The translations under genes were made by a program, and so were the position numbers. The notes beneath the pieces are model-generated. The model saw nothing but the letters and a program-made list of their open reading frames with translations. It did no database searches and had not been told where the DNA came from. From assembly GCA_963799395.1 (NCBI GenBank), contig CAWCWZ010000063.1, forward strand, positions 1,607 through 65,606: DNA of 64,000 nucleotides. Direction: 5' to 3'. Below, piece after piece: positions 10,882 through 64,000 of this stretch (the stretch's first letter is position 1; the number at the start of each line of letters is the position of its first letter). This DNA comes from an uncultured Actinomycetes bacterium. Its GTDB lineage: Bacteria > Actinomycetota > Thermoleophilia > UBA2241.

Positions 10882-12282
10882 GTGAGCCTCGTCGCCCGAC
10901 ACGCGGCGCTGACCGACATCGGCCTGCACCGCTCGACCAACGAGGACGCCTTCGTCGCCGAGCCGCCGCTCTTCGCGGTGGCCGACGGCATGGGCGGGGC
11001 GCAGGCCGGCGAGGTCGCCTCGCACCTGGCCCTCGAGGCGCTCGTCGAAGCCCTGGCCGGCGACGTCGACGCCGAAGCCGAAGCCGACGCCCGCGGCAAC
11101 GCCCGCGGCGACGTCGACGAAAGCGCCCGCGTCGACCTGGCCGACGCCGCCCTGGCCGCCAACGCCAGCGTCTATCAGCGCTCGCGCACCGACCGGGCCC
11201 ACACCGGCATGGGCACCACGCTCACGGCGGCGCTGCTCGGCGACGACCGCCTCGAGTTCGCCCACGTCGGCGACAGCCGCCTGTACCTCTGGCGCGACGA
11301 GCGGCTCGAGCAGATCACCGACGACCACTCCCTGGTCGGCGAGATGGTGCGCGCCGGCCACCTCACGCCCGAGGCGGCCCTGACCCACCCGCAGCGCAGC
11401 ATCCTGAGCCGGGCCCTGGGCACCGAGCCGCGGGTCGAGGTCGACTCGGGCGCGCTCGAGCTGCGGGCCGGCGACGCCGTCGTGCTCTGCAGCGACGGGC
11501 TCTACTCGATGATCTCCGAGGAGACGTTCGCGGCCGTCCTGGCGGCCGTCGACGACCCCTGGCGGGTCGCCCGCCAGCTCATCCGCGAGGCCAAGAACGA
11601 GGGCGGCCACGACAACATCACCGTCATCGTGCTGCGCTTCGACGAGGCCGGCGAGGGCGCCGGCGAGCCGGCGCTCGACGACGCTGCAACGGCGGTCCTG
11701 CCGGCGGTCGACGACGCCGCCACGACCGGCGTGCTGCCGGCGCTCGACGCCGGCCCCGAACAGCTGAGCCTCGACGTGCCGGCCGACGATTCCGACCCGG
11801 CTGAAGCGCCCGAGGCGCCGGCCGGCGAAGCCGCCGTCGCCGCGTCGCCGGCCGACGAGGCCGAACTCACCGATGCGGCGGCGGCTGCCGATACGGCCGC
11901 GGCTGCCGATGCGGCGGCGGCTGCCGATGCGCCCCCGGCCGCTGCCTCTGCCGACGCGCTGCCGCGGCGTCGCCGCCGGCGCCGGCTGCGGCTCGTCGTC
12001 GCGCTGATCGCCCTGCTCGCGGTCTGCCTGGTGGCCGGCGCCGTCGTCGCCGACGGCGTCTACTACGTCGGCGACCACGACGGCATGGTCAGCGTCTACC
12101 GCGGCCTGCCCCTGCGGGTCGCCGGGGTCGAGCTGAACCGCCTTTACCTGCAGACGACGACGCCGCTCAGCGCGGTCCCGCCCAACGTGCTCGCCCAGAT
12201 CCAGCGCCACGACCTGCACAGAAGGGCGGCGGCCATGGCGCTGGTCGACAAGGCCGACAAGGCCGAGGGCTTCCCGCCGTGA
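10882..12282 (+). CDS. pstP: PP2C-family Ser/Thr phosphatase with C-terminal membrane anchor (PstP/Ppp)
   Basis: Contains the PP2C motifs DGMGG, GTTLTAALL and CSDGL, then a long acidic Ala/Asp-rich linker, a poly-Arg stretch and a TM helix. It overlaps the rodA start. Confidence 0.85.
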   Translation: MSLVARHAALTDIGLHRSTNEDAFVAEPPLFAVADGMGGAQAGEVASHLALEALVEALAGDVDAEAEADARGNARGDVDESARVDLADAALAANASVYQRSRTDRAHTGMGTTLTAALLGDDRLEFAHVGDSRLYLWRDERLEQITDDHSLVGEMVRAGHLTPEAALTHPQRSILSRALGTEPRVEVDSGALELRAGDAVVLCSDGLYSMISEETFAAVLAAVDDPWRVARQLIREAKNEGGHDNITVIVLRFDEAGEGAGEPALDDAATAVLPAVDDAATTGVLPALDAGPEQLSLDVPADDSDPAEAPEAPAGEAAVAASPADEAELTDAAAAADTAAAADAAAAADAPPAAASADALPRRRRRRRLRLVVALIALLAVCLVAGAVVADGVYYVGDHDGMVSVYRGLPLRVAGVELNRLYLQTTTPLSAVPPNVLAQIQRHDLHRRAAAMALVDKADKAEGFPP

Positions 12283-13601
12283 GCCGCCGCAACACCGAGC
12301 TCCTGCTGCTGCTCCTGGTCGGTGTGGCGGCGACCATCGCCTACGTGTCGGTGTACGCGGCCCGCGTTCACGACCTGCGCCGCGACTCGGTCGTCACCGG
12401 CCTGATCTTCGCCGTGCTGTTCCTGGTCATCCACCTGGTCGAGCGTCGCTACCTGGCGCAGGCCGACCCCTACCTCGTGCCGATCGCCGCCCTGCTCAGT
12501 GCCACCGGCCTGACCGAGATCTACCGCATCGCGCCGGCGCTCGCCTGGAAGCAGGGCGAGTGGCTGCTGATCGGCGTCGGGCTGTTCGCGGCCACCGTGC
12601 TCGTCGTGCGCGACGTGCGCCGCCTCGACGCCTACCGCTACCTGTTCGGCCTCGCCGGCCTGCTCCTGCTGGCGCTGACCATCGTCGCCGGCACGAGCGT
12701 CAACGGCGCCCGCCTGTGGATCCGCGTGGCCGGCTTTTCGATCCAGCCGTCGGAGTTCGCCAAGATCGCCATCGTCATCTTTCTGGCCGGCTACTTAAAC
12801 CAGAACAAGGAGATGCTGTCGGTGCCGACGGCGCGCCTGCTGGGCGCCCCGGTGCCGCCCCTCAAGTACTTCGGTCCGCTGCTCGTGATGTGGGTGCTGT
12901 CGCTGCTCATGCTGGTCTTCATGAAGGACTTCGGCATGTCGCTTTTGTTCATGGCGACCTTCATCGCCATGCTCTACATGGCCACGACGCGGATCATCTA
13001 CGTGATCGCCGGCGCCCTGCTGTTTGCCTTTGGCGCTGGGGGCGCCTACCAGTACGTGCCCCACGTCCACGAACGGTTCGCCATCTGGATCGACCCCTGG
13101 AAGACGGCCGCCACCAGCGGCTACCAGCTCCTGCAGTCGCTGTTCGCCATGGCCGACGGCGGCCTCGTCGGCGCCGGTTTTGGGCGCGGCTACCTGCTCT
13201 ACGCGAACCACGTCCCGACCGTGCCCGACCTGCAGACCGACTTCATCTTCAGCGCCATCGCCAACGAGCTCGGCCTGGCCGGCGGCATCGGCCTGATCCT
13301 GCTGTTCCTGCTCTTTGCCTGGCGCGGATTCCACATCGCCCTGCACGCCTCGGACGGCTTCTCCAAGCTGCTGGCGGCCGGCCTGGCCACCGTGTTCGGC
13401 CTGCAGAGCTTCATCATCGTCGGCGGCGTCACCCGGCTCATCCCGCTGACCGGCATCACGCTGCCGTTCGTGAGCTACGGCGGCAGCTCGCTGACCGCCA
13501 ACCTGGTGCTCGTGGCGCTGCTGCTCATGGTCTCGCACCGCAGCCAGGTGGTCGAAGCCGGCAGCACCACCGAGCGCATGCGCCTGGCGGAGCTTTCGTA
13601 G
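12279..13601 (+). CDS. rodA: SEDS-family peptidoglycan glycosyltransferase (RodA/FtsW)
   Basis: A 440 aa polytopic membrane protein with conserved SEDS segments (GFSIQPSEFAKI, DFIFSAIANELG, PFVSYGGSS). Confidence 0.85.
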   Translation: MSRRNTELLLLLLVGVAATIAYVSVYAARVHDLRRDSVVTGLIFAVLFLVIHLVERRYLAQADPYLVPIAALLSATGLTEIYRIAPALAWKQGEWLLIGVGLFAATVLVVRDVRRLDAYRYLFGLAGLLLLALTIVAGTSVNGARLWIRVAGFSIQPSEFAKIAIVIFLAGYLNQNKEMLSVPTARLLGAPVPPLKYFGPLLVMWVLSLLMLVFMKDFGMSLLFMATFIAMLYMATTRIIYVIAGALLFAFGAGGAYQYVPHVHERFAIWIDPWKTAATSGYQLLQSLFAMADGGLVGAGFGRGYLLYANHVPTVPDLQTDFIFSAIANELGLAGGIGLILLFLLFAWRGFHIALHASDGFSKLLAAGLATVFGLQSFIIVGGVTRLIPLTGITLPFVSYGGSSLTANLVLVALLLMVSHRSQVVEAGSTTERMRLAELS

Positions 13602-13611
13602 GGGGCCGGCG

Positions 13612-15042
13612 ATGAATCGTGCCATCAGCCGCGTGTTCGTCGTCGGGGCGATCCTCATGGTCGCCCTCATGGTCAACCTCGCCTGGATTCAGGTCTTTCA
13701 TGCCAGGAGCCTGCGCGACGCTCCGCAGAACCACCGCGTCCTCGCCCAGCAGCTCCGCGTCAAACGCGGGCTCATTCAGGGCTTCGACGGCTCGACCATC
13801 GCCGGCGACGCCAAGCGCTCGGGCTTCTACTACCGAACCTATCCGCAGGGGCCGGTCGCTCCCCAGATCGTGGGCTACGACAGCGTGCGCTACGGGCAGA
13901 GCGGCATCGAGTCGTCGCTGAACGGCTACCTGAGCGGCAGCAAGGCCGGCACGCAGAGTCTCGTCGACCGCATCCTGGGACGTCAGAGCCCGGGCGCCAA
14001 CGTCGAGCTCACCATCGTGCCGGCCGTGCAGAAGGTGGCCCAGAGCGCCCTCGGCGCCCAGGTCGGCGCCATCGTGGCGCTCGACCCGAGCACCGGCGCC
14101 GTCATCGCCGCCGCTTCGGCGCCGAGCTACAACCCGGCGACCATCGACGTGAGCTTCAGGTCGCTCGCCGGGAACCCCGACGCGCCGCTCCTCAGCCGCG
14201 GCACCCAGGGCCTCTACCCGCCGGGCTCGTCGTTCAAGGTGGTGACCGCCACCGCCGCCCTCAACCTCGGCAAGGTCACGCCGACCACCCCCTTCGTCGA
14301 CTCGGGCGTCTACGACATCTACGGTGGCAAGGTCACCAACTACCACGGCGAGGTGTTCGGCGCCAACGACTTTACCCAGGCGCTGACCCATTCGATCAAC
14401 ACCACCTTCGCCAAGGTCGGCACCCTGATCGGCCAGGCGGCCCTGATCGCCCAGATGAAGGCCTACGGGTTCTACCAGGTGCCGCCGCTCGAGCTGCCGC
14501 CCGGCATGGTCCTGCCCAGCGGCCGCTACCAGGGCGCGGCGCTGCTGTCACCGGCCGCCGCGATGAACCCTCTCGACCTGGCCTGGGCGGCGGTCGGCCA
14601 GGAGAACGTGCTGGCCACGCCGCTGCAGATGGCCCTGGTGGCCGCCGGCGTGGCCGATGCCGGGCAGGTGATGAAGCCGTACCTCGTGCAGCGCATCACC
14701 AGCAGTTCGGGGAGCGTGCTGCAGGCGGCGGCGCCGAGGCTCTGGACGACGGCCACGAGCCCGGCCACGGCGCAGACCCTGAACGTCATGATGCAGCAGG
14801 TCGTGAACGCCGGCACCGGCACCGCCGCCGCCCTGCAGGGCATCCAGGTGGCCGGCAAGACCGGCACGGCCCAGAAGGGCTCGAGCAACGTCGCCTGGTT
14901 CATCGCCTTCGCCCCGGCCAACGACCCCAAGGTGGCGGTGGCCGTGACCATCGAGAACACGCTGTTCACCGGCGGCGACGTGGCGGCGCCGCTGGCCGCC
15001 CAGGTCATCAAGGCCGCCCTGGCGCAGCCCGCGCTGCCCTGA
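13612..15042 (+). CDS. pbpA: class B penicillin-binding protein (transpeptidase)
   Basis: N-terminal TM anchor followed by a transpeptidase domain containing SxxK (PGSSFK), SxN (SIN) and KTG (KTGTA). Confidence 0.85.
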   Translation: MNRAISRVFVVGAILMVALMVNLAWIQVFHARSLRDAPQNHRVLAQQLRVKRGLIQGFDGSTIAGDAKRSGFYYRTYPQGPVAPQIVGYDSVRYGQSGIESSLNGYLSGSKAGTQSLVDRILGRQSPGANVELTIVPAVQKVAQSALGAQVGAIVALDPSTGAVIAAASAPSYNPATIDVSFRSLAGNPDAPLLSRGTQGLYPPGSSFKVVTATAALNLGKVTPTTPFVDSGVYDIYGGKVTNYHGEVFGANDFTQALTHSINTTFAKVGTLIGQAALIAQMKAYGFYQVPPLELPPGMVLPSGRYQGAALLSPAAAMNPLDLAWAAVGQENVLATPLQMALVAAGVADAGQVMKPYLVQRITSSSGSVLQAAAPRLWTTATSPATAQTLNVMMQQVVNAGTGTAAALQGIQVAGKTGTAQKGSSNVAWFIAFAPANDPKVAVAVTIENTLFTGGDVAAPLAAQVIKAALAQPALP

Positions 15043-15093
15043 AGCCGGGCAGGACTCGGCGAGGGAGTGTGGTAACTTGAAATCGAGGAGCTC

Positions 15094-17041
15094 TTGACCG
15101 AAGCATTCGAACAGGGACAGGTGATCGCCGGCCGCTACCGCGTGCTGCGCCGGCTCGGCGTCGGCGGCATGGCCGACGTCTACCTCGCCGACGATACGAC
15201 CCTGGGACGCCAGGTGGCGGTCAAGGTGCTGCTCAAGCGCTACGCCGGCGACGCTTCGTTCGTCGAGCGCTTCCGCCGCGAGGCCCAGGCCGCCGCCCGC
15301 ATCAACCACCCCAACATCGTCAACATCTACGACTGGGGCCCGGTCGACGGCACCTACTACATCGTCATGGAGTACGTCGAGGGCGAGACGCTCAAGGACC
15401 ACATCCGCCGCGAGGGCCGCTACAACCCGAGCGAGGCGGTGCGCATCGCCCTCGAGCTCTTGGCCGGCGTCCAGGTGGCCCACGGCGCCCACATCGTCCA
15501 CCGCGACATCAAGTCGCAGAACATCCTGATCGACCGCGCCGGCACGGTGAAGGTCACCGACTTCGGCATCGCCAAGGCCGACGACACGCAGATGACCGAG
15601 GCCGGCTCCATTCTGGGAACCGCCCAGTACCTGGCTCCCGAGCAGGCCAAGGGCGAGTCCGTCGACGAGCGCACCGACCTCTACTCGGTGGGCGTCGTCT
15701 TCTACGAGATGCTGACCGGCTCGCTGCCCTTCCGCGGCGACAGCGCCGTCACCGTCGCCCTCAAGCACGTGAACGAGCAGCCGGCCGAGCCGGCCGAGCT
15801 CGTGCCCGGGCTGCCCTACTCGCTCAACCAGATCTGCCTGAAGGCGCTCGCCAAAGACCCCGACCAGCGCTACCGCACGGCCGCCGAGTTCACCGCCGAC
15901 CTCGTCGCGGCGCGCAGCGGCGGGCCGCTGCTCGCCGCCGCCTACGACCCGTCGCTCGACCGCACGCTGGTGCAGTCGCCGTCGGCCGGCAACGAGGGCA
16001 CGACCCGGGTGCTGCCCAGGGCCCCCGTGGCGGCGGCCGCCGGCGGCGCCGCGGCCGGTACGGCTGGCGCCGCGGGCGCGAACGGCGGGCGCGGCAGCAA
16101 GCGCAAGCGCTCGCCGTGGCCGTGGATCGCCCTTGTCGCCTTTCTCGTCATCGCGGCCGTCGCCGGGGTGCTGATCTGGCACTCGTTCTTCGGCGGCTCC
16201 ACGCTCACCGTCCCTTCGGTCGTCGGTCAGCCCCAGGCGGCCGCCACGACGCAGCTCCAGAACGAGGGCTTCGTCGTCAAGGCGCACGACGACTACTCCG
16301 ACCAGTACGGGGTGGGGCTCGTCACGAGGCAGCAGCCGACCGTCGGCGGCAAGCTCGTCAAGGGCGGCACCGTCGACATCTGGGTGAGCCGCGGCCCCGC
16401 CACCTCCACCCTGATCGATTTCAGCGGCTGGACGCCGTCGCGGGTGGCGGCCTACCTGGCCAAGTACGGCCTTGTCGGCAAGGAGCTCTTCGGCGCGTCG
16501 ACGACGGCGCCCAAGGGCACGGTCTTCAAGCAGAGCCCGGCGCCGGGGATCACGGTCACGCGCGGCGACACCGTCAGCTACTGGGTGAGCCGCGGCCTGC
16601 CGCAGGCGATCGTGCCCGACCTGTCGGGCCTCGACCAGACCCAGGCGACGGCGGCGCTGCAGGCGGTCGGTCTGGTGGGTATCTTCGCGCAGCAGACGAG
16701 CACCCTGGTGCCGGCCGGCCAGGTCACAAGCCAGAGCCCGGCGGCCAACACGGCGGTCCCCAAGGGCAGCACCGTGGACGTCGTGATCAGTACCGGCACA
16801 CCGACGCCGACCACCAGCCCCTCGAGCTCGCCGACCTCGACCGGCCACGCCGGTCGCCGTGCCGAGCGTGGTGACCATGCCCGAGACCCAGGCCGAGCAG
16901 CTCCTGAACAACGCCGGCTTCGTCGTGTCGGTCAAGCACGGCACGAGCACGCTGGGCTCGGGTTACGTCTACGACCAGTCGCCCGCGGCCGGCGACCAGG
17001 CGGCGCCCGGCAGCACCGTCATCATCTGGGTCACCAAGTAG
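15094..17041 (+). CDS. pknB: Ser/Thr protein kinase with four extracellular PASTA domains; the last PASTA domain is displaced by a +1 frameshift at about 16843..16848
   Basis: Kinase domain motifs LGVGGMADVY, HRDIKSQN and DFG, then a TM helix (PWPWIALVAFLVIAAVAGVLIW) and PASTA repeats 1-3 in the main frame. The fourth PASTA (PVAVPSVVTMPETQAEQLLNNAGFVV...IIWVTK) is in ORF 16859..17041. An extra C in a GGCC context explains the shift. Confidence 0.85.
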
Positions 17042-17128: not shown

Positions 17129-18124
17129 TCAGGCCTTGGCGATGAAGATCACGTAGACCAGGTAGAGCGCGTACATCGAGCCGGCCCCGCACAGCGTGAA
17201 CCAGGTGAGCTTGTGCCTGAGGCGCAGCTGCAGGTAGAACACCGTGCCCGAGACGAGCGCTAGCACGCCGCTGACGAGGCCCGTGCGCGTGAGCTGCCAG
17301 GTCGTGAAGAGCAGCCCGATCGACACCGGGAAGGTGCTCTGAAAGACCATCGCCCCGGTGATGTTGCCCAGGGCCAGCGTGTCCTTGCCCTGGCGCACCC
17401 AGATCACCGAGTTGAACTTCTCAGGCAGCTCGGTGGCGAGCGGGCTCAGGATCAGCGAGACGAGCAGCGGGTCGATCCCCAGTGAGGCGCTGACGTGCTG
17501 CACCTGGGTGACGAAGAAGCGCGCCCCGAGGATGATGCCCAGCGTCGCCACGCTGACCTGCAGGATGATGCGGCGCCGGTGGGGCATGACCGGGTGACGG
17601 TGAAAGTAGAGCGGCTTGGTCTCGCCCTCGAGCTGGCCGCCGACGCGCACCGTGCGCCAGACGTAGACGCCGTAGGCGACCAGCAGGCACGGCGACAGGA
17701 TCCACTTGACGTGGTGGTACGGCAGCACGCCGGCGATCATGGCGCAGGCGTAGGCGACGACGAAGAACGACAGGTCGCGACGCAGCACGGGCTCGTTGAT
17801 CGTGAACTCGAGTGGGCGCCGGCGGCGCAGGTAGAAGACGACGACGGCGCCGCCGGTGACGACCATGGTGAGGCTCGAGAGCATGAACGGGGCGCCGAGG
17901 ATGGCGCCGATGCCGATGTCCTTGGAGTCGGGGGCGTGGGTGAAGAGGATGGCGATGATCGGGATCAGCGTCTCGGGCAGGGCCGTCCCCACGGCCGCGA
18001 GCACGCTGCCCACCGCCCCCTCGCCGAGCTCGAAGCGCCGCCCGAACCACTCGATGCCGTTGGTGAACAGCTCGGCCGAGACAAGGATGATGGCCAGGGC
18101 GAGCAGGAGGTAGACGACGGTCAT
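17129..18124 (-). CDS. Ca2+/cation antiporter (CaCA / sodium-calcium exchanger family) membrane protein
   Basis: 331 aa with about 10 TM helices and two alpha-repeat-like segments (GTALPE... and SPLATELPE). Confidence 0.6.
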   Translation of the reverse strand: MTVVYLLLALAIILVSAELFTNGIEWFGRRFELGEGAVGSVLAAVGTALPETLIPIIAILFTHAPDSKDIGIGAILGAPFMLSSLTMVVTGGAVVVFYLRRRRPLEFTINEPVLRRDLSFFVVAYACAMIAGVLPYHHVKWILSPCLLVAYGVYVWRTVRVGGQLEGETKPLYFHRHPVMPHRRRIILQVSVATLGIILGARFFVTQVQHVSASLGIDPLLVSLILSPLATELPEKFNSVIWVRQGKDTLALGNITGAMVFQSTFPVSIGLLFTTWQLTRTGLVSGVLALVSGTVFYLQLRLRHKLTWFTLCGAGSMYALYLVYVIFIAKA

Positions 18125-18176
18125 GGTCCCGGCAGCTTACCACGCTGCCCGTGGCGCTCCGGCCGCGCGTCCGCCG

Positions 18177-19691
18177 CTACGTGTGCGACACCTCCTTGCG
18201 CACCTCGCGCGAGGCGAGCGCCCAGTAGACGAGGCCGCCGACGACGATGCCGATCAGCCAGCTCAAGTCGGAGCCCGACGTGCGCGAGGAGATCGGCCCC
18301 ACGTACGAGGGCACGTAGTACAGGGCATTGGTCCACATCATGGCGGCCGCCATGCCGAGGAGCTGGGCGATGACCGCCGGCCAGTGGAGGCCGCCATTGC
18401 GCCAGTAGAGGCCGCCGCGCTCCTTGGCGAGCGAGAGCGGGTCGTAACGCCCGCGTCGCAACAGGTAGTCGACCATCACGATGGCGAACCACGGGGCCAG
18501 CCAGACCACGATATAGAGCAGGAATCCCTTGAGGTCGGTGTAGAAGTCGCCCTTGAAGATGACCAGGGCGGTGACGATGGCCACGACCACGGTGTCAATG
18601 ATCACCGCCTGATAGCGGCGCACGGCGATGCCGATGGCCTGCAGGGTCACGCCCGAGGAGTACAGGTCGATCGTATTGATGGCGAAGAGCTGAGGCAGGG
18701 CGAGGATCATGTAGGGCCAGAAGAACCAGGCCGCGAAGGCCGCAGGGACGCCGGTCACGTCGAGGGTCTTGCTGCTGACGACAAAGGCGGCCGCGCCGAG
18801 CAACTCGAGCAGCAGCGAGGGGATAGCGGGGCCGAGCGTCGCCGCCCAGAAGGTCCTGGCCTTCGGCGTGGTGCGCGGCAGGTAGCGCGAGTAGTCGTTG
18901 CCGTTCTCGGTCCAGCCGAGCCCGCCGACCGAGATGATGACCACCAGCGCCGTCGTCCAGACGGCCCACGAGGCGCTCTGGTGCAGGCTGCTCAGATGAA
19001 CGTGGGGTACGATGAGGACGGCCATCACCGCAAAGACGGCGATGAACACGAACGACAGCCAGTGCAGCACCTTGGTGATCGTGGCGTGGCCGAGGAACGG
19101 CATGAGGAACTGCACGCCGACGGCGACCAGGATGAAGAGCACCTTGAGGCCGTTGCCGGCGGTCACGCCGCCGCGCAGGAACATCGCCTCGAACACCAGC
19201 ACGATGATGACGATGCCCTCGATCTCGAACCCGACCTGGGTGATCCAGTTGAAGAACGCCACGCCGCGGTTGGCGTTCTGCCCGAACGGCGCCCGGCTGA
19301 CCATGAAGGCGGTCGTGCCCGTGGCCGGGCCCTGCAGGCTGGCAAAGCCGAGCAGGATGTAGAAGACGTTGCCGGCGACGATGGCCAGCACCGCCTGCCC
19401 GAACGACAGCCCGAACGACATGATCAGCGCGCCGTAAACGAGGAACTCGACGTTCCATACCGCGCCGGCCCACAGCCAGAAGAGGCCGGCCGGGCGCATG
19501 GTGCGCGCCTCGTCGGGGATCAGCTCGATGCCACGCTGCTCGACCTTGAACGCGACGTTCTCGTCGGCCTGGTCCACAGGACCCGTGGGACTCGCGACGA
19601 CCGGCGTCTCTGCCACTGTCGCCCCCTTTCCGTGCTCGCTGCCGGGTACGGCCGTCGTCCGCCCCGCGCGGGGAGGCAATGACCGGGTCAC
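18177..19691 (-). CDS. NCS1-family (purine-cytosine / nucleobase) permease
   Basis: 504 aa twelve-helix transporter with NCS1-like segments. The true start may be an internal GTG or ATG about 25 codons downstream of the ORF start. Confidence 0.6.
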   Translation of the reverse strand: MTRSLPPRAGRTTAVPGSEHGKGATVAETPVVASPTGPVDQADENVAFKVEQRGIELIPDEARTMRPAGLFWLWAGAVWNVEFLVYGALIMSFGLSFGQAVLAIVAGNVFYILLGFASLQGPATGTTAFMVSRAPFGQNANRGVAFFNWITQVGFEIEGIVIIVLVFEAMFLRGGVTAGNGLKVLFILVAVGVQFLMPFLGHATITKVLHWLSFVFIAVFAVMAVLIVPHVHLSSLHQSASWAVWTTALVVIISVGGLGWTENGNDYSRYLPRTTPKARTFWAATLGPAIPSLLLELLGAAAFVVSSKTLDVTGVPAAFAAWFFWPYMILALPQLFAINTIDLYSSGVTLQAIGIAVRRYQAVIIDTVVVAIVTALVIFKGDFYTDLKGFLLYIVVWLAPWFAIVMVDYLLRRGRYDPLSLAKERGGLYWRNGGLHWPAVIAQLLGMAAAMMWTNALYYVPSYVGPISSRTSGSDLSWLIGIVVGGLVYWALASREVRKEVSHT

Positions 19692-49970: not shown

Positions 49971-50378
49971 ATGGTCCCAGGCGATGACCCCACAAGGCCG
50001 CTGTTCATGATCTCGATCGCGGCCGAGCTGGCCGCGATGCACCCGCAGACGCTGCGGCTCTACGAGCGTCGCGGGCTCCTGCAGCCGCGGCGCTCGGCCA
50101 AGAACACGCGCCTGTACTCACGAGCCGACGTCGACCGGCTGCAGCGTATCCAGGAGCTGACCGAGCTCGGTCTCAACCTGGCCGGCGTCGAGCGCGTGCT
50201 GGCGCTCGAAGGCCAGATGGCGGTCATGCGCGAGCAGATGGAGCGGCTCCAGGCCGAGCTCGACCGCGCCGCCGACGACCTGCGCGACCAGGTGCGCGAA
50301 GTCGAACGGTCGATGCGCCACGACCTGGTGCCGGTCAGCCACATGGCGGTCGTGCGCATCGGCAAGCGCCGCCGCTGA
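49971..50378 (+). CDS. hspR: MerR-family heat-shock repressor HspR
   Basis: MerR helix-turn-helix (…ISIAAELAAMHPQTLRLYERRGLLQPRR…), then a coiled-coil. Placed between dnaJ and clpB as in actinobacterial hsp operons. Confidence 0.8.
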   Translation: MVPGDDPTRPLFMISIAAELAAMHPQTLRLYERRGLLQPRRSAKNTRLYSRADVDRLQRIQELTELGLNLAGVERVLALEGQMAVMREQMERLQAELDRAADDLRDQVREVERSMRHDLVPVSHMAVVRIGKRRR

Positions 50379-50426: not shown

Positions 50427-52859
<2,433 letters not shown>

Positions 52860-52940
52860 GGGAACGGCGGGGCGCGGGCCGCGCCCGGGGCCGCCCCCAG
52901 GGCGTTGCCCGCGCCTTTCGCTTTGGCCTATAGTGGCTGC

Positions 52941-53138
52941 ATGGCACGAATGCGCACCCTGTTCTTCGGCAGCATCCTGGGAGGCGCCGTGAGCGCCGTC
53001 CTGGCCCGCCGTCTCGCCGACCTGCGCTACCGGCGGCTGCTCGCCGCGCGCCACGGTCGCGCCCTGGCGGCCTTCGGCGGCGCACCGTGCACTCAAGAAT
53101 CCTGCGCCACGGGCGACAAAGAGACTGTAGAGGAATGA
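52941..53138 (+). CDS. possible small (65 aa) membrane peptide expressed from a leaderless transcript
   Basis: Internal ATG of ORF 52905..53138 (MARMRTLFFGSILGGAVSAVLARRL…). A TATAGT -10 hexamer lies 6 nt upstream of this ATG. One hydrophobic helix. Low confidence. Confidence 0.3.
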   Translation: MARMRTLFFGSILGGAVSAVLARRLADLRYRRLLAARHGRALAAFGGAPCTQESCATGDKETVEE

Positions 53139-53211
53139 CCGACGGTGGCCGCCGGCGAAGTCGCCGGTAAGCGCGGCCGCCCAGATCCGCCCGAAGGCTG
53201 AGGAGCGCGCC

Positions 53212-54366
53212 GTGGATTTCTTTCTGTATCAAGAGGAGAAGAGTGTGGACGACGAGCCGGTGATCGTGCGAACGGGTGATCTCGAGCACGAGTTCAAGGT
53301 CGAGATCGGGTTCCTCGAACGCGAGGTCGTGGCCTACAGCGGCGCCCTCAAGATCGTGGGCTACGCTCACTTCGGCGAGGGCGGGCGCACGTCGTCGCGG
53401 CGCTCGTCCGACCACCTGCGCCGCCTGAACGACCCCAAGCTGACGCTGTCGCGGGCGAGTATCTACAATGCGGTCAGCGGCGAGCTGATCGAAACGGCGC
53501 CCTTCGTCGTGATCAACCTCGACCGGGTCGACGTCGTCTACGCGCGCGACATCCCCGACGACGCCGAGGGCGCGTCCGACGCGGCGCCGGCCGACGCGGC
53601 GCCGGCCGACGCGGCGCCGCGGGGGCGCCGACGCGGGGCCGGCCGGCCGGTAGCCGGCGGGGGAGCAATGTACTCGGTCGACGTCCTGCTGCCCACGGCG
53701 CGCTTTGCCTTCTGGGTCGACGGCGGGCGGGTCGAGGTCGTGCCCGAGCATCGCTCGCCCGAGGGCTACGTCCTCTACGAAGAGGTCGCGGCCGAGCACC
53801 CGGTGGTCGGCATGACGACCTTTCCCAACACGGTGCTGCTGCGCGGCCCCAAAACGATCCTGGTCGACCCCGGCATGCACCTGCAAAACCAGCCGGTCGT
53901 CAAGGCGCTCGCGGCCCGCGGCCTGGGCGTCGACGACCTCGACTTCATCGCCCTCACCCATGCCCACCTCGACCACGCCGGCGCCTGCGCCGACGTGCCG
54001 GGGCCGGTCGTCGTCCACGAGCTCGAGCTCGACGACCCCGACCGGCCGATGGTGGCCGGGCTCCTGCCCCTCGAGCGCCTGCGCCTCTTGTCGGGCGACG
54101 AGGGCGAGCTCACCGCCGGCATCACCTGGGTACGCACGCCGGGCCACACCGAGGGCGGCGTGTGCTTCAGGGTCGAGACCGCCGACGGCCTCGTGGTGCT
54201 GACCGGCGACACCATCGGGCCGCTGCGCGACGACTACGAGCGGGTCGTCGCCGGCGTCGACTCGGGCCCCGACCCGACCCTGGCGGCCTCCTGGCGAGCG
54301 ATCGCGTCGTGGGGCGCGGCGCTGCTCATCGCCGGGCACGTGCCGCCCTTCGCCCCCCGACCCTGA
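53212..54366 (+). CDS. MBL-fold metallo-hydrolase with an N-terminal domain of unknown function (about 120 aa)
   Basis: GTG start preceded by GAGGAG. The N-terminal domain (MDFFLYQEEKSVDDEPVIVRTGDLEHEFKVEIGFLEREVVAYSGALKIVGYAHF…) has locally lower GC. Then an AAPADAAPADAAP linker and a metallo-beta-lactamase fold (…LTHAHLDHAG…TPGHTEGG…). Confidence 0.6.
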   Translation: MDFFLYQEEKSVDDEPVIVRTGDLEHEFKVEIGFLEREVVAYSGALKIVGYAHFGEGGRTSSRRSSDHLRRLNDPKLTLSRASIYNAVSGELIETAPFVVINLDRVDVVYARDIPDDAEGASDAAPADAAPADAAPRGRRRGAGRPVAGGGAMYSVDVLLPTARFAFWVDGGRVEVVPEHRSPEGYVLYEEVAAEHPVVGMTTFPNTVLLRGPKTILVDPGMHLQNQPVVKALAARGLGVDDLDFIALTHAHLDHAGACADVPGPVVVHELELDDPDRPMVAGLLPLERLRLLSGDEGELTAGITWVRTPGHTEGGVCFRVETADGLVVLTGDTIGPLRDDYERVVAGVDSGPDPTLAASWRAIASWGAALLIAGHVPPFAPRP

Positions 54367-54451
54367 CCCGACGCGGACGCGCGAGCCGACCGCCGGACGG
54401 CCCTGTGCTAGACTGAAACGCCGAGCCCAGACGAAGCCCAGGAGCAGGCCC

Positions 54452-54838
54452 TTGCCGATCTACGAGTACCGCTGCGACGCGTGCGGCCACACGCTCGAGG
54501 TCTTTCAGAAGTTCTCAGACGAGCCCCTCGAGACCTGCGAGGTCTGCGGCGGCCACCTCGCCAAGGTCCTGCACCCGGTCGCCATCCACTTCAAGGGCTC
54601 GGGCTTCTACACCACCGACTACGGTCGCGGGTCGAGCAAGGCCCGCGCCGCCGACGCCGGGGCCAAGGCCGACGCCGACGCCAAGGGCGACGGCACGTCC
54701 GGCGCCGAGGCCAAGAAGGCCGCCGAGCCCACGGCCAAGGCGGCGGGCAACGGCGATGGCGGAACGACAGGCAAGGCGGCGGGCGGCGGCGGCGAAGCCG
54801 CCGCCGCCCGCCGCTCGACCACCGACAAGGCCGGCTAG
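54452..54838 (+). CDS. FmdB-family zinc-ribbon protein with Ala/Lys-rich tail
   Basis: MPIYEYRCDACGHTLEV…CEVCGG (CxxC…CxxC), then a low-complexity KA-rich C-terminus. Confidence 0.7.
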   Translation: MPIYEYRCDACGHTLEVFQKFSDEPLETCEVCGGHLAKVLHPVAIHFKGSGFYTTDYGRGSSKARAADAGAKADADAKGDGTSGAEAKKAAEPTAKAAGNGDGGTTGKAAGGGGEAAAARRSTTDKAG

Positions 54839-54862
54839 GCCGGCCGCGGGGCGGGGGAGTCC

Positions 54863-56209
54863 ATGCCGGCGCACGACGACGAGGGCGTGATCGACAAGCG
54901 CGCGACCGAGCGCATCGCCCAGCAGGCGCGCGCCAACCTGCGCAACCTGGTGAGCGACGACACGCTCGCCCTGCCGTCGCTGCGAATGATCGCCGACGGC
55001 ATCCGCCTCGAGCTCGAGAAGCGCGGCGAGGTGGCCATCCTCTACGTCGGCCTCAAGCGCTACGGCCGTCTCGAGCGAGTGTTCGGCTGGCAGGTCACGT
55101 CCGACGTGCTCGACGCCTGCTCGAGCATCCTCCAGGAGATGGTGGGCACCTCGCTGCGCCGGCTCGACGTGCTGGCCGACTTCACGCTGTCCGACAACGC
55201 CTTCATCGTCGTGCTCTCGCCGCCGCGGCGGGCCAAGGAGATCGCCCGCGACGACCTCACGGCCATCAGCCGCCGCGTCTACGAACGTCTGCAGTCGATG
55301 CTCCTGAACGACCTCGCGCCGGGCGTCTTCGACCGCGTCCACCCGTTCGTCACGGTCGCCGTGCTGCAGGCCGGCGCCGAGCTCACCTTCGAGCAGTCGC
55401 TGCAGAACGGCGTCGCGGCGGCCATGCAGGCCGCCGAGCGCGAGTGGCTGATCTACGACGACGAGCTCGAGCGCACCCTGGCCGACGCCGTCGCCAACCA
55501 CAGCCTCGAACCGCTGTTCGACGCCATCGTCGACGTCGCCGAGCGCAAAGTGCTCGGCTACCACACCGCCATCCGCGGGCCGTTCTACTCGCCGCTGCGC
55601 CTGCCCGACGTGCTCGACGAGGTCGCGCGGCGCTCGCCGCTGCTGTCGAGCTACGGCATAGAGACGCGCGAGCTCGCGGTCACCAAGGCCGTCGGTCTGG
55701 GCCCCGAGGAGCTGCTCGTGCTTTCCTGCGAGTCGGTCGAGCTGCCCGGCGCGGCGGTGCTCGCCCTGAGCGAGTTCTACTCGTTGAACAAGGCGCTCGT
55801 GCCCCAGCACGTGGTGTTCGAGGTGCAGGTCGCCGACCTCGCCGCCAACGCCGCTTCGGCGCTGCGCGTGCTCGGGCCGGTGCACGAGATGGGCTTCCCC
55901 GTCTGCGTGGCCGGCGTCGGCAGCGGTCTCACGGCGTTCGACCTGATCATCCGGGCGCAGCCCGACTACCTGGCCCTCGACCCGGTGATCAGCGTGGGCG
56001 CCACCGACGATCCCACCTCCATGGACATCGTCCAGCTCCTGCTGCGCTTCGCCGCCCGCATCGACGCCCGCCTGATCGCCCCCGAAGTGGGGAGCGTCGG
56101 CCAGATGAAGGCCCTGCGGCGCGTGGGGGTCGAGCTCATGAGCGGCGACGTCTTCACCCGGCCCGACACGCGGCTGCCCAAGGTGGGGGTCTCGAAGCTG
56201 CCGGTCTGA
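54863..56209 (+). CDS. degenerate GGDEF-EAL tandem-domain protein (predicted catalytically inactive c-di-GMP-related protein)
   Basis: Preceded by GGGGAG. The GGDEF-like N-terminus lacks the GG(D/E)EF motif. The EAL-like C-terminus has degenerate signature positions (…VCVAGVGSGLTAFDLI… in place of DDFGTG; …APEVGSVGQ… in place of EGVE). Confidence 0.5.
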   Translation: MPAHDDEGVIDKRATERIAQQARANLRNLVSDDTLALPSLRMIADGIRLELEKRGEVAILYVGLKRYGRLERVFGWQVTSDVLDACSSILQEMVGTSLRRLDVLADFTLSDNAFIVVLSPPRRAKEIARDDLTAISRRVYERLQSMLLNDLAPGVFDRVHPFVTVAVLQAGAELTFEQSLQNGVAAAMQAAEREWLIYDDELERTLADAVANHSLEPLFDAIVDVAERKVLGYHTAIRGPFYSPLRLPDVLDEVARRSPLLSSYGIETRELAVTKAVGLGPEELLVLSCESVELPGAAVLALSEFYSLNKALVPQHVVFEVQVADLAANAASALRVLGPVHEMGFPVCVAGVGSGLTAFDLIIRAQPDYLALDPVISVGATDDPTSMDIVQLLLRFAARIDARLIAPEVGSVGQMKALRRVGVELMSGDVFTRPDTRLPKVGVSKLPV

Positions 56210-56222
56210 AGCCGGTCCGTAG

Positions 56223-60999
<4,777 letters not shown>

Positions 61000-61090
61000 C
61001 CCCGCTTAAGGCGCACTTAACACGCACTTAATCAGCAGCGGCGATACTACTTGTCGACCCCCCTCAAGGGCACCCCCAAGCCCTGACAGC

Positions 61091-61126
61091 GAGCCCCGCC
61101 CCCCGCGGGGCTCGTTGCGTTTGTGG
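61091..61126 (+). terminator. putative intrinsic terminator downstream of ligA
   Basis: GAGCCCCGC-ccccc-GCGGGGCTC perfect 9 bp stem, followed by GTTGCGTTTGTGG (U-rich). Confidence 0.4.
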
Positions 61127-61261
61127 GGTCGTTTCCCCACCGAAAGCCAGGCGACCACAAGGACGTGCCTCGCGAGGCCTGGCGGAAGGTCGAGTTCCCC
61201 AACGGCCGCCCCGACCCCGCCGTAGGCGCGTCTGCCGTGCGGGCGATAGACTACGCCGTAG

Positions 61262-61337
61262 GCCGGTGTAGCTCAGTTGGTAGAGCAGCTGTCTTGTAAA
61301 CAGCAGGTCGACGGTTCGATTCCGCCCGCCGGCTCCA
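61262..61337 (+). tRNA. tRNA-Thr (anticodon TGT)
   Basis: 76 nt: GCCGGTGTAGCTCAGTTGGTAGAGCAGCTGTCTTGTAAACAGCAGGTCGACGGTTCGATTCCGCCCGCCGGCTCCA. Anticodon loop CTTGTAA. The T-stem has one A-C mismatch. The antisense translation of this region gives the classic …LLYQLSYTG… artefact in ORF 61064..61696. Confidence 0.8.
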
Positions 61338-61344
61338 CTAGTTT

Positions 61345-61540
61345 CCCTGCAGAACGGCATGTCGCCCTGGCGCGTCACGGCGCCGCGCGTCTGCTCGAGC
61401 GCCGCCCGGACCTGAAGCTCGTCGCCGTCGAGGTCGACGTCTTCCCACAGCTCACACCTGGCAAACGACAGCCGAGCCCCCGTCCGAAGCAGAAAGGCCG
61501 CCCTCTCACACGGCTCCTCACCAGCTAGCCTAGGCGCAGC
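61345..61540 (-). pseudogene. tyrosine-integrase core fragment abutting the 3' end of tRNA-Thr
   Basis: Minus-strand translation …GARLSFARCELWEDVDLDGDELQVRAALEQTRGAV… resembles the integrase catalytic-domain entry motif (…LRWEDVDL..G.L.VRR…T.GG…). There is no N-terminal domain and no catalytic RHRY region; the fragment runs directly into the tRNA. Confidence 0.35.
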
Positions 61541-61604
61541 AACGGCCTTGTGAGCGCCACCATCCGGGTAGCACCATCCAAATGCCCCAGAAGGAGGTCG
61601 CTCA

Positions 61605-62239
61605 TGCACCGCATCACCCGGCTTCGGCCGTCCCCGCCATGATCGTCGCCATCGTCGCCCTCGTGCTCGCGCTCGGCGGCACGAGCTACGCGGCAATCAC
61701 GCTGCCGGCCGGCAGCGTTGGCACCGAGCGGCTGCAGAGAGAACGCCGTGATAGGTTCCAAGGTCAAGAACGGCTCGCTGACCTTGGCCGACATCAACGC
61801 CGCCAGCCTCTCCGGCCTGGGCAGGGTCGCGATGAACCACAGCTCTACAAGCTTCTCCGCCGGCGGCACTGGCACGGTCACGACCGTCACGCTGAAGGTG
61901 CCGGCCAAGGGCTTCGTGCTGGTCAACGGCTGGGTGGACTCCGCGTATCCGAACGCTGCCGTCGGCGTGACGGTCTGGGACGACACCACTAACACCGAGT
62001 CGTATTGGGAGAACGCCAACACGGGTGCGTCGACCGAGATCTCCTCGGGTCAGACGTATGTCTTCCCGGTCAAGCCAGGGACGTCGACCTTCTCGGTGAG
62101 GATCAGCTACGACACCTCCTCGTCCGGCTTCGAAGCCTATGGGACTATCACTGCGCAGTTCATCCCGTTCGGTTCGACGGGCAGTCGCACCGTTCTCGGC
62201 CCTATGACGGAGGCACCGGCGGCCGCGCAGCAGCACTGA
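61605..62239 (+). CDS. hypothetical exported/membrane-anchored protein in a lower-GC islet, spread over three frames (shifts near 61638 and near 61742)
   Basis: AGGAGG-N6-ATG start (MHRITRLRPSP), then a signal/TM segment (…AMIVAIVALVLALGGTSYAAITLPAGSVGTE…) in ORF 61582..61992, then the remainder (…NAVIGSKVKNGSLTLADINAASL…TITAQFIPFGSTGSRTV…) in ORF 61718..62239. Codon usage and GC differ from the flanking genes. Confidence 0.45.
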
Positions 62240-62277
62240 CCGCAAGGACGTGGTCTGCGGCCGCGCAGGTACGAGAC

Positions 62278-62309
62278 GAGGCCGGCCGCCCTCAAGGGCG
62301 GCCGGCCTC
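62278..62309. terminator. bidirectional terminator-like hairpin between the islet ORF and the convergent phosphatase gene
   Basis: GAGGCCGGCCGCCC-tcaa-GGGCGGCCGGCCTC, a perfect 14 bp stem with a 4 nt loop. Confidence 0.4.
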
Positions 62310-62453
62310 GTCCACGCGTCAGGCGATCGCCGAGTACCTGCGCGGCGCGTAGGGCCGGGGGGTGTCCACTCGCGCAGAACAGCCCCAGGCAGTGGCCGTC
62401 ATCGGCAGTCCCCGTCGGCACCGCAGCTCCCGACCTCCGCGCGTTGCCCGCTC

Positions 62454-63680
62454 TCAGGCGTTCGCCCCCGTCGCAAGCCTCAGAACCAGGACTTCGAGAT
62501 CGTCGCTGAGCCGGCCGGCGAAGGCGGTCGCCTCGTTGCGCACGCCGTCGGCGATCTCCTGGGGAGTCCGGTCGCGGAGCTTGGCGACGACCTCGACCAG
62601 CCGCGCCTCGCCGAACATCTCGCCGTCTCTCCGGGCCTCGGTGACCCCGTCGGTGTAGAACACGAGGCAGTCGCCGGCGGCGAGCGTCAGGTGGGAATCG
62701 AGATAGTCCGCGTTGAAGGCGCCCAGAGCGATGTGCTGCGGGGTCTCGAGCAGCCGGCACCCGCGGCGATCGATCACGACGGGCGGCGGGTGACCGGCGC
62801 TCGTGTAGGTCGCCCGCCCGGTCTCGCGGTCGAGAACGAGGAAGAAGGCGGCCACGTACTCACCCTCGGTCTCGCGCCGCAGCAGCAACTGGTTGGTCTT
62901 TCTCAGGATGAACGCCGGGGAGGAGTCGACCATGGCGAACGCTCGCACAGTGCTGCGTACCCGCTCCGTCAGACCGGCGGCGCGGATGCCCTTGCCGGCG
63001 ACGTCGCCGATGAGGACGGCGACGAGCGAGCCGTCGAGGACGAAGACGTCGCTGAAGTCGCCTCCCACGAGCTCGGGTTGGAACGCGGCCTGTGCCACGA
63101 GGCCCAGATCGAGCCCCTCGACCCGCGGCAGGGGGCTCATGAAGTTCTCCTGCAGGGCGGTGGCGATGCGGCGCTGCTCTTCGAGCAGCGCCGCATTCTC
63201 TATGGCGGCCTGTTCCGAGGCGAGCCTGGCGAGCGTGGTGTCGAACAGACCGGCGACCGCCAGGTAGACATCGAGGAGGGACTGGGACAGGGGGCCGCTC
63301 GCGCGGTGGCCGACGAGCAGCGCCGCGTGGCGCTGCTGGTCGCCGGCCAGGGGCAGGAGGGCGATCGCGTAGTCGCCGTCCGGCAGGGCGATCAGCTCGC
63401 TTGCAAGAAAGCCGCTGGCAAGGACCTGCCTCGCGGTCTCGCGGACCTGGTCGGCAAGACGATCGCAATCCTGCGGCGCCGACAGCGTGCAGTAGCGCGC
63501 GGCGATCGCGCCGTCGGGGCGGCGTTCGAGCAGGGTGACGAGGTCGGCATCGAAGAAGCGCACGAACACCTGCCCCAGCTCCCGCCAGATGTCGGCGTCG
63601 CGACGCAGCATCGCCAGGTACTGAGCCGTGCGCAACACCGCCGTGAGACCGTCGCCGCGCTGCCCGCCGACCTCACTCAC
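62454..63680 (-). CDS. PP2C-type Ser phosphatase of the SpoIIE/RsbU family with an N-terminal GAF-like sensor domain
   Basis: 408 aa. The C-terminal PPM domain (…GGDFSDVFVLDGSLVAVLIGDVAGKGIRAAGLTERVRS…FYTDGVTEARR…) is typical of the RsbU/RsbP/SpoIIE family. Confidence 0.75.
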   Translation of the reverse strand: MSEVGGQRGDGLTAVLRTAQYLAMLRRDADIWRELGQVFVRFFDADLVTLLERRPDGAIAARYCTLSAPQDCDRLADQVRETARQVLASGFLASELIALPDGDYAIALLPLAGDQQRHAALLVGHRASGPLSQSLLDVYLAVAGLFDTTLARLASEQAAIENAALLEEQRRIATALQENFMSPLPRVEGLDLGLVAQAAFQPELVGGDFSDVFVLDGSLVAVLIGDVAGKGIRAAGLTERVRSTVRAFAMVDSSPAFILRKTNQLLLRRETEGEYVAAFFLVLDRETGRATYTSAGHPPPVVIDRRGCRLLETPQHIALGAFNADYLDSHLTLAAGDCLVFYTDGVTEARRDGEMFGEARLVEVVAKLRDRTPQEIADGVRNEATAFAGRLSDDLEVLVLRLATGANA

Positions 63681-64000
63681 GAGTCGCCGTGGACCGCCGA
63701 GACCAGGGCGGCGATATTCTCCGGCCTGGCCTCGAGCGGGATCTCGCAGCCCGACGAAAGGATGAACCCGCCGCGATCGGCGAACAGCGCGACGAGACGG
63801 CGGCCTTCGGCGGCGATCTCGGGGGCCGCGCCCAGGACGAACGACAGCGGCAGGATGTTCCCGTCGAGGCAGGTCCGCTCGAGGATCTGCCCCGCTCGCA
63901 CCGGATCGACGTCGTAGTCGAGGTTGGCGATATCGACGCCGGCCTCGGGGTAGTAGCCGAGGATCGGTTCGGTCGCGCCGGCGATGTGCAGCCAGGTAGC
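63677..64000 (-). CDS. uroporphyrinogen decarboxylase (URO-D) family protein, C-terminal part (the 5' end of the gene lies beyond the window end)
   Basis: Minus-strand frame open to the window edge: …ATWLHIAGATEPILGYYPEAGVDIANLDYDVDPVRAGQILERTCLDGNILP…GGFILSSGCEIPLEARPENIAALVSAVHGDS*. Stop at 63677. Confidence 0.6.
   Translation of the reverse strand, partial: ATWLHIAGATEPILGYYPEAGVDIANLDYDVDPVRAGQILERTCLDGNILPLSFVLGAAPEIAAEGRRLVALFADRGGFILSSGCEIPLEARPENIAALVSAVHGDS

Follow-up and report, generated by a model that had tools for sequence, protein, structure and literature searches.

A probable integration scar at the variable tRNA-Thr(UGU) flank of an uncultured thermoleophilian bacterium

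Genomic islands at tRNA genes, as defined in Islander (PMC4383910), comprise a tyrosine integrase gene, a regenerated tRNA gene and a displaced fragment of that tRNA gene at the far end. The locus described below is the 3' flank of a tRNA-Thr(UGU) gene in a 64,000-nucleotide (nt) stretch of DNA, hereafter the window, from an uncultured Actinomycetes bacterium of the class Thermoleophilia (GenBank assembly GCA_963799395.1, contig CAWCWZ010000063.1, positions 1,607 to 65,606). Next to the tRNA gene, the minus strand holds a short stretch resembling a tyrosine integrase, which is followed by a plus-strand gene for an exported protein, a hairpin and a minus-strand phosphatase operon. An earlier reading of this DNA from its letters alone (the original prediction) had taken the integrase resemblance, the exported-protein gene and the hairpin together as the decayed stump of one element that had integrated at the tRNA 3' end. 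Comparison with relatives favors a narrower interpretation, with a probability of roughly 0.6, namely a decayed integration scar at a hypervariable tRNA-Thr flank, next to which the exported-protein gene is a separate and most likely functional neighbor. The scar is an ordinary, inert relic of a past DNA insertion and has no present function.

The integrase fragment

The fragment lies in a minus-strand frame that is open from 61600 down to 61338, contains AAFLLRTGARLSFARCELWEDVDLDGDELQVRAALEQTRG and reads RPPSGAFGWCYPDGGAHKAVAAPRLAGEEPCERAAFLLRTGARLSFARCELWEDVDLDGDELQVRAALEQTRGAVTRQGDMPFCRET. Codon-phase G+C content (GC; GC1 to GC3 for the three codon positions) in 61300-61480 falls in the order GC3 (0.82-0.88), GC1 (0.72-0.80) and GC2 (0.47-0.55), which is a coding-type periodicity for exactly this frame. 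When metagenomes of the Joint Genome Institute (JGI) were scanned with the back-translated peptide, one confirmed relative (L086) was found, whose open reading frame (ORF) unmistakably encodes the catalytic domain of a tyrosine recombinase (TGARRGE ... HALRHTHAS ... LGHASPSTTLSIYAH), with the HxxR and Tyr motifs present. BLASTP aligned the fragment to this relative with 19/34 identities, including TGAR, W.DVDLD and VRAALEQT. At E<=1e-10 the relative has 2,311 homologues, PF00589 proteins labelled integrase, and 120 of its PF00589 homologues were used to build a subfamily hidden Markov model (HMM) of 241 positions.

Searched against the 1,088 six-frame peptides of the window (120,258 residues), this HMM matched the ORF of the fragment and nothing else (23.5 bits; next best E 4.1), with an E-value of 1.6e-6 that is somewhat optimistic because the subfamily had been selected through a member matching the fragment. 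The fragment peptide on its own scored 25.6 bits, while 5,000 shuffled versions reached at most 2.9 bits. It aligns to HMM positions 46-97 (47-99 for the ORF in the six-frame search), and 116 of the 120 subfamily members are collinear with it, at 35-55% identity in the listed alignments. Free of the bias in subfamily selection is an enrichment among sub-threshold tblastn matches in phage genomes: 35 of 48 fell inside integrase genes, all of them at query residues 32-86, and spanned 8 unrelated groups (Helicobacter, VWB, phiCTX/BR319a, Staphylococcus pseudintermedius phages, SF3, PS-1 and Streptococcus satellites). Judged by these sequence comparisons, the stretch is a fragment of a tyrosine integrase gene that comprises the entry of the catalytic domain only. 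The resemblance to this entry that the original prediction had noticed is borne out by the profile, the shuffles and the phage matches alike, and the case illustrates that a very short integrase relic may be recognizable only with a subfamily-specific profile.

What survives are the last helix before the catalytic domain and the first strands of that domain. The TGxR motif is represented by TGAR, aligned to TGlR of the profile, with the first catalytic arginine (Arg-I) at 61472-61474, and the conserved Glu that follows it (TGxRxxE) is replaced by Phe. The remaining catalytic residues (Lys, HxxR, His/Trp and the Tyr nucleophile) are missing from the fragment, as is the N-terminal core-binding (SAM-like) domain, in whose place, upstream of the fragment, stands the conserved leader of the oppositely oriented exported-protein gene. 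No other integrase segment was found by the subfamily HMM in any of the six frames of the window, in line with the original prediction, which had noted no N-terminal or catalytic segments. Compared with a sister assembly (L081), the fragment shows three differences, all non-synonymous (E29G, R39Q, D60G), which fits neutral decay, if on a small count.

The tRNA-Thr(UGU) flank in the window and in relatives

A ligA-based scan with one genome per species yielded 80 loci, the closest of which belong to uncultured Thermoleophilia/Actinomycetota metagenome-assembled genomes (MAGs). The sister assembly L081 was reached by exact look-up of the phosphatase protein; it is 98.7% identical to the window over 11.5 kb and extends 9.7 kb past the window end, so that it served to view the region beyond position 64000. 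In all 14 relatives examined (14/14), tRNA-Thr(UGU) follows ligA, the gene of the NAD-dependent DNA ligase. Eleven relatives are syntenic with the window at the DNA level from position 50000, or from where their contigs start, up to 61337-61351 and no further, and nothing from 61338-64000, be it the fragment, the plus-strand gene or the phosphatase, was found anywhere in their loci. Through L081, synteny is seen to come back 4,148 nt past the tRNA end, at a conserved leader that precedes an MFS transporter gene.

Between the tRNA and this MFS leader every relative carries something different: L003 and L004 have ~1.1-1.5 kb there, L005 has 3.3 kb, L021 has 5.4 kb and L083 has 6.3 kb. The genes that come first in this interval vary as well and include GNAT-type, radical-SAM/SPASM, DUF389, TIG/peptidase surface protein and dimethylamine methyltransferase (MtbB) genes. 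The GC of 61338-64000 is 0.692, compared with 0.707 for the whole window. Particularly informative is L083, which is among the closest relatives (LigA 90.6%) and has the exported-protein gene after tRNA-Thr without the integrase fragment and without the phosphatase operon; what lies between the tRNA and the MFS leader is thus a mosaic and not one island. The comparison of this locus among relatives, as had been proposed, places the break at the tRNA end and finds different content in every genome, whereas the hairpin that had been taken as the boundary of the unit lies well inside a non-syntenic block of ~4.15 kb that runs past the window end. Taken together, these comparisons mark tRNA-Thr(UGU) downstream of ligA as a hypervariable insertion point in this uncultured Thermoleophilia-like lineage.

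The features of the locus are collected in Table 1. Within the lineage-specific segment, the initial ~16 nt (CTAGTTTCCCTGCAGA) are similar to the tRNA trailer in some relatives, and the remainder is unalignable with L083 and with two short metagenomic contigs (L087 and L088) that also carry the exported-protein gene. The phosphatase gene is the final gene of a minus-strand operon (B12-binding protein, URO-D-family methyltransferase, phosphatase) that occupies the remainder of the variable block and extends past position 64000. An Rfam scan of 60900-64000 gave no match except the tRNA.

Table 1. Features at the ligA/tRNA-Thr(UGU) locus, in window coordinates.
Feature	Position	Strand	Remarks
ligA (NAD-dependent DNA ligase)	59050-60999		tRNA-Thr starts 262 nt after it
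tRNA-Thr(UGU)	61262-61337	+	Intact, CCA encoded; ARAGORN, and Rfam tRNA at 68 bits
Lineage-specific segment	61338-61528		Seen only in the window and the sister assembly L081
Tyrosine integrase gene fragment, dead, ~52 codons	61379-61534	-	Assigned by subfamily profile match
Conserved leader and ribosome-binding site (GGAGG) of the exported-protein gene	61529-61603	+	Common to L083, L087 and L088
Exported-protein gene, predicted 211-aa membrane-anchored product	61604-62239	+	ATG at 61604; interrupted twice in the window
Hairpin, perfect 18-nt inverted repeat	62275-62312	none	Inside a longer imperfect stem
SpoIIE/PP2C-type phosphatase gene	62454-63680	-	Converges on the hairpin from the other side
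URO-D-family gene, 3' part	63677-64000	-	Cut by the window end; no counterpart beside tRNA-Thr in relatives

Several further observations concern the surroundings of this flank. The MFS leader spans ~190 nt (L081 about 8004-8200, or ~4,150-4,340 nt past the tRNA-Thr end), and its motif CTGATGGGTTG..GGGAAAG..GGCAA..GCGGC..AGGCCAGGGAGAG is common to five genomes (L081, L004, L021, L005 and L003). Rfam gives no match to it at E<=1, and it may be an undescribed cis-regulatory RNA. In L006 a dimethylamine methyltransferase gene (12819-13880; Dimeth_Pyl, E 1e-116) stands directly after tRNA-Thr and contains an in-frame TAG at 13878-13880, beyond which the frame continues to about 14246; this TAG looks like a pyrrolysine codon in an actinobacterial MAG. 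A similar split occurs in L009, and L081 carries a 103-aa Dimeth_Pyl fragment together with corrinoid-protein and URO-D-family genes.

On the other side of the tRNA, L001 has an insert of ~4 kb between ligA and tRNA-Thr (12100-16075), and the 5' side is therefore variable too in at least one lineage. The ligA frame of the window is open upstream to 58804 (58804-60999), and short tandem repeats (GAGCCGGGTGGCGAG-like) at its 3' end (60904-60963) encode a Gly/Glu/Pro-rich tail after the BRCT domain. In L083 (4523-7369) the gene caller joins a HAD-hydrolase domain and LigA into one 948-aa product, a candidate HAD-LigA fusion. Elsewhere in the window, ARAGORN calls a 93-nt 'tRNA-Gly' with anticodon ACC at 18105-18197; both its length and its anticodon are unusual, and it may be a false call or a feature of another kind.

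The exported-protein gene and its hairpin

In the window the frame of the exported-protein gene is interrupted by a 1-nt deletion within a C run at 61632 and a 1-nt insertion at 61739; the C is missing relative to L081, L083, L087 and L088, and the G at 61739 is extra relative to L081. The original prediction was correct that the gene is frameshifted twice in this assembly, but the frameshifts probably do not reflect decay, as the 211-aa ORF is uninterrupted in L081 and the gene is intact in L083, L087 and L088 too. Between the window (52454-64000) and L081 there are 30 indel events in 11.5 kb, mainly single bases within genes, and each assembly is intact where the other is broken: ligA is whole in the window and split in L081, while 54203-54835 and 54839-56206 of the window form one 596-codon ORF in L081. 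With this many indels, and with each assembly breaking different genes, the frameshifts point to assembly error rather than biology, and the two in the exported-protein gene are probably of this kind. Single-base frameshifts elsewhere in the window are likewise possible assembly errors and should not be read as pseudogenes.

A possible but doubtful alternative is that the gene is a genuine recent pseudogene, perhaps disabled when its upstream block was lost through the insertion and deletion of integrase-bearing DNA. With the indels removed, the window copy differs from L081 by 6 synonymous and 2 non-synonymous changes, and the latter (K42E and Q43R, the second at an invariant Gln) add to the two indels in support of this alternative, as does the clustering of changes in 61726-61739. 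In addition, L083, L087 and L088 carry a further conserved block upstream of the leader (AGGTTGACG.T.TCC.GAGACGC), in whose place the window and L081 have the integrase fragment. However, L081 shares the same truncated upstream region and nevertheless has an intact gene, one of the indels falls in a C homopolymer, and the two assemblies, at 98.7% identity, break different conserved genes, ligA in L081 among them. The sequence SLDNVNLDG in L083 was considered as a second integrase remnant and rejected, as it is the antisense of a conserved upstream block of the exported-protein gene and gives no match to the profile.

The gene does have a lower GC (0.656, the 3rd percentile of the window, whose mean is 0.707), as had been predicted, but the different codon usage proposed along with it was not recovered. 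Its GC3 is 0.86, compared with 0.89-0.93 in neighboring genes, and the deficit sits at codon position 1 (0.50 versus 0.75), so that the low GC is attributable to a protein rich in Ser, Thr and Asn rather than to foreign codon usage. Homology with L083, L087 and L088 begins at ~61529, with the leader and ribosome-binding site, and the module is 88% identical to L083 at the DNA level. The view that the gene is decayed cargo of the integrated element is not upheld, since L083 has the gene after tRNA-Thr without the integrase fragment.

More than 60 full-length homologues, at 40-89% identity, make up its protein family, which has no Pfam domain. An AlphaFold2 monomer model was made for one homologue (P0001), which is 89% identical to the intact L081 protein; it shows a transmembrane helix at the N-terminus, then a linker modelled with low confidence and finally a beta-sandwich of eight strands with a predicted local distance difference test score (pLDDT) >90 at residues 75-188. 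A Foldseek search with the sandwich returned C1q heads, TNF-family ligands, Chlamydia Pgp3 and the Bacillus exosporium proteins BclA/ExsFA (probability 1.0, E ~3e-5). The product is accordingly predicted by the model to be a membrane-anchored C1q/TNF-like beta-sandwich protein. The N-terminal ~70 residues (61604-61810) form a signal-anchor and 'SVGTKQLKKNAV.GSKVKNGSLT.ADI' module. Many proteins of 116-361 aa have it at 51-76% identity in front of C-terminal parts that are unrelated, and it appears to be what an uncharacterised family of surface proteins has in common for anchoring or as a stalk. The gene thus draws attention to a family that is uncharacterised and has no Pfam model, with a predicted C1q/TNF-like head and a widely shared N-terminal module.

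The hairpin starts 36 nt past the stop codon of this gene, between convergent genes. Its arms (62275-62292 and 62295-62312) are perfect over 18 nt rather than the 14 bp first noted, and effectively form a 17-bp stem with the loop TCAA, set within a longer imperfect stem (62260-62279/62327-62346). The 125-nt region around it has a folding energy of -89.5 kcal/mol (z = -6.8 compared with shuffles). The hairpin is kept 3' of the exported-protein gene in L081, L083 and L087, with a compensatory A:T to G:C change in L087, and the L088 contig ends inside it. No further copy was found in the window or the other loci, and an interpretation as a dispersed repeat was rejected for this reason. Homology with L083 stops at ~62315, just past the hairpin. 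There is no U-tract, the stem being followed by CACGCGTCAGG, and a consensus terminator scan does not call the hairpin because the T-run is absent. Its conservation with a compensatory change, its single copy and the end of L083 homology at this point suggest that it is most likely the U-tract-less terminator of the exported-protein gene itself, placed to serve both convergent genes. Leader, ORF and terminator hairpin would most likely make up a separate, self-contained and functional unit.

Origin of the scar and comparison with known systems

The proposed history would be the following. The 3' flank of tRNA-Thr(UGU) would be a hot spot at which this clade repeatedly gains and loses DNA, and in the lineage of the window an integrative element with a tyrosine integrase would formerly have been present there. 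The element would later have been deleted almost wholly, leaving ~150-190 nt of the integrase gene to drift neutrally. On its N-terminal side, the remnant would have become joined to the truncated upstream region of the resident surface-protein gene, and its other side would end 41 nt from the tRNA. Site-specific integration at this tRNA is suggested as the route of arrival both by the adjacency of the fragment and by the position of the synteny break, and the order of insertion and deletion given here would be one that accommodates these observations.

Several points weigh against such a history. A deletion that ended just 41 nt from the tRNA must be assumed. The attR sought as a mark of integration was not recovered: the tRNA 3' 25-mer has no copy in the window at <=3 mismatches, and in L081 the next 12.3 kb hold no piece of the tRNA end of at least 15 nt (<=2-4 mismatches). 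Where the block ends, the 9-mer CCGGCTCCA was examined as a candidate attR and rejected, as it sits within the MFS leader that relatives share. By profile, no integrase was found in 86 loci, save L086 itself and the L081 copy of the fragment, and no relative among them shows an intact integrase near tRNA-Thr. Likewise, no tRNA genes were found beside full-length members of the matching subfamily in four sampled contexts, so that it is adjacency that links the fragment to the tRNA.

These same observations would be explained if the fragment did not result from integration here and ordinary recombination or illegitimate joining instead brought in a piece of an integrase pseudogene with other DNA. 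The lack of an attR, of integrases at this tRNA in 14 relatives and of tRNA genes beside the matching subfamily all agree with this, and both ends of the fragment are illegitimate junctions. On the other hand, tRNA 3' ends are the usual targets of tyrosine integrases by the Islander definition (PMC4383910), and a distance of 41 nt from the tRNA with an exact synteny break in all relatives is the signature expected of integration. A carried-in fragment is thus considered unlikely, and integration at the tRNA with subsequent decay is preferred.

It is also rather improbable that the whole ~4.15-kb block, with the integrase fragment, the exported-protein gene and the SpoIIE phosphatase, URO-D and B12-binding genes, represents the remains of a single element at tRNA-Thr whose attR has decayed. 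The block is indeed absent from the tRNA-Thr flank of ten relatives (L021, L002, L001, L003, L004, L005, L078, L007, L006 and L037), extends from the tRNA to a sharp end at the conserved MFS leader. However, L083 shares only the exported-gene module, with homology that ends exactly at the hairpin, so that the block is a mosaic in which at least three pieces vary independently. Moreover, it contains no mobility genes and no attR, and the GC of the phosphatase gene (0.703) is typical of the window. The idea of an element stump at the tRNA-Thr 3' end is supported as regards the fragment and the break at the tRNA, and is not supported as regards the hairpin boundary and the cargo.

A chance match of the short acidic motif DVDLDGD in a non-coding spacer is highly improbable as a source of the integrase resemblance, even though general searches speak for it and against an integrase origin. 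Pfam, NCBIfam, PHROGs and PDB sequences returned nothing relevant to the fragment, and the generic Pfam integrase model (PF00589) was silent at E<=1. A word-indexed protein search and a viral contig scan gave no match, plasmid tblastn gave mixed matches, and an exhaustive phmmer search of 1.84 billion representatives gave 69 matches and no integrase. The eight of these 69 that were scanned are bacterial cadherin/Big_9 repeat proteins, except one small protein without a clear family, and the cadherin/Big_9 matches were judged uninformative, as they sum weak matches of DxDxDG-type repeats to the acidic motif. A further reservation is that the subfamily was chosen after one of its members had matched. 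Nevertheless, TGAR upstream of the motif and VRAALEQT downstream of it belong to the similarity as well, which keeps its register for ~52 residues. Shuffled peptides fall far below the score of the fragment, which is also the only match in the translated window, and the phage matches to integrases of 8 lineages as well as the coding periodicity in that frame add to the case.

A more speculative possibility, to which only a very low probability is given, is that modules are exchanged as cassettes at this flank, through an integrase that acts in trans from another locus. Such modules would consist of leader, ORF and perfect terminal hairpin, as in the ~790-nt exported-protein module, which has other flanks in L083 and L087 and stops exactly at the hairpin; the integrase fragment would in that case be left over from a recombinase that once resided here. 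An integron-like arrangement, in which the remnant of an integron integrase faces a gene cassette with the 3' palindrome as its attC, was rejected on sequence features and NCBIfam integron-integrase scores and retains next to no probability: fragment and gene point away from each other, a ~100-nt imperfect palindrome follows the ORF, and the leader-gene-hairpin module has different flanks in L083 and L087 (in L088 only the upstream flank is seen to differ), but the palindrome core is a perfect G+C-rich 17-bp stem with no extrahelical bases and no RYYYAAC/GTTRRRY core sites, the module carries its own conserved leader, there is a single unit followed by genes on the other strand, and full-length subfamily members score 32-44 bits against the NCBIfam cut-off of 265.

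Compared with known systems, the locus resembles tDNA islands and prophage remnants in that foreign, lineage-specific DNA begins at the 3' end of an intact tRNA gene, that tyrosine-integrase sequence adjoins it and that the content differs among close relatives. It differs from them in having only ~52 integrase codons, no attR and no other mobility genes, and in that the variable block is a mosaic of independent pieces and not one bounded island. Of the components that Islander requires (PMC4383910), only the tRNA gene is present, without an integrase gene and without a displaced tRNA copy.

The closest sequences to the fragment are those of the PF00589 subfamily around L086 and P0190-P0309, which are metagenomic and in some cases carry an N-terminal PF14659 domain. 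They are collinear with the fragment at 35-55% identity over 35-76 residues, and the likeness covers the helix with the TGxR arginine and the beta-strands that follow (W.DVDLD...VRAALEQT). In the fragment, unlike in these proteins, there is no core-binding domain, the Lys, HxxR, His/Trp and Tyr residues are missing and Phe stands for the Glu after the arginine; it appears to evolve without protein-level constraint.

The hairpin resembles the U-tract-less ('I-shaped') intrinsic terminators of high-GC actinobacteria, with a very stable G+C-rich perfect stem-loop after the stop codon, a position between convergent genes and a compensatory change; from a canonical intrinsic terminator it differs by the absent T-run after the stem. 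The predicted eight-strand sandwich of the exported protein is comparable to C1q/TNF jelly-roll proteins such as the C-terminal domain of Chlamydia Pgp3, Bacillus BclA/ExsFA/BxpB and phage fibre knobs. Unlike in those proteins, with which it has no sequence similarity (6-18% identity), an N-terminal membrane anchor would replace the collagen-like or coiled-coil stalk.

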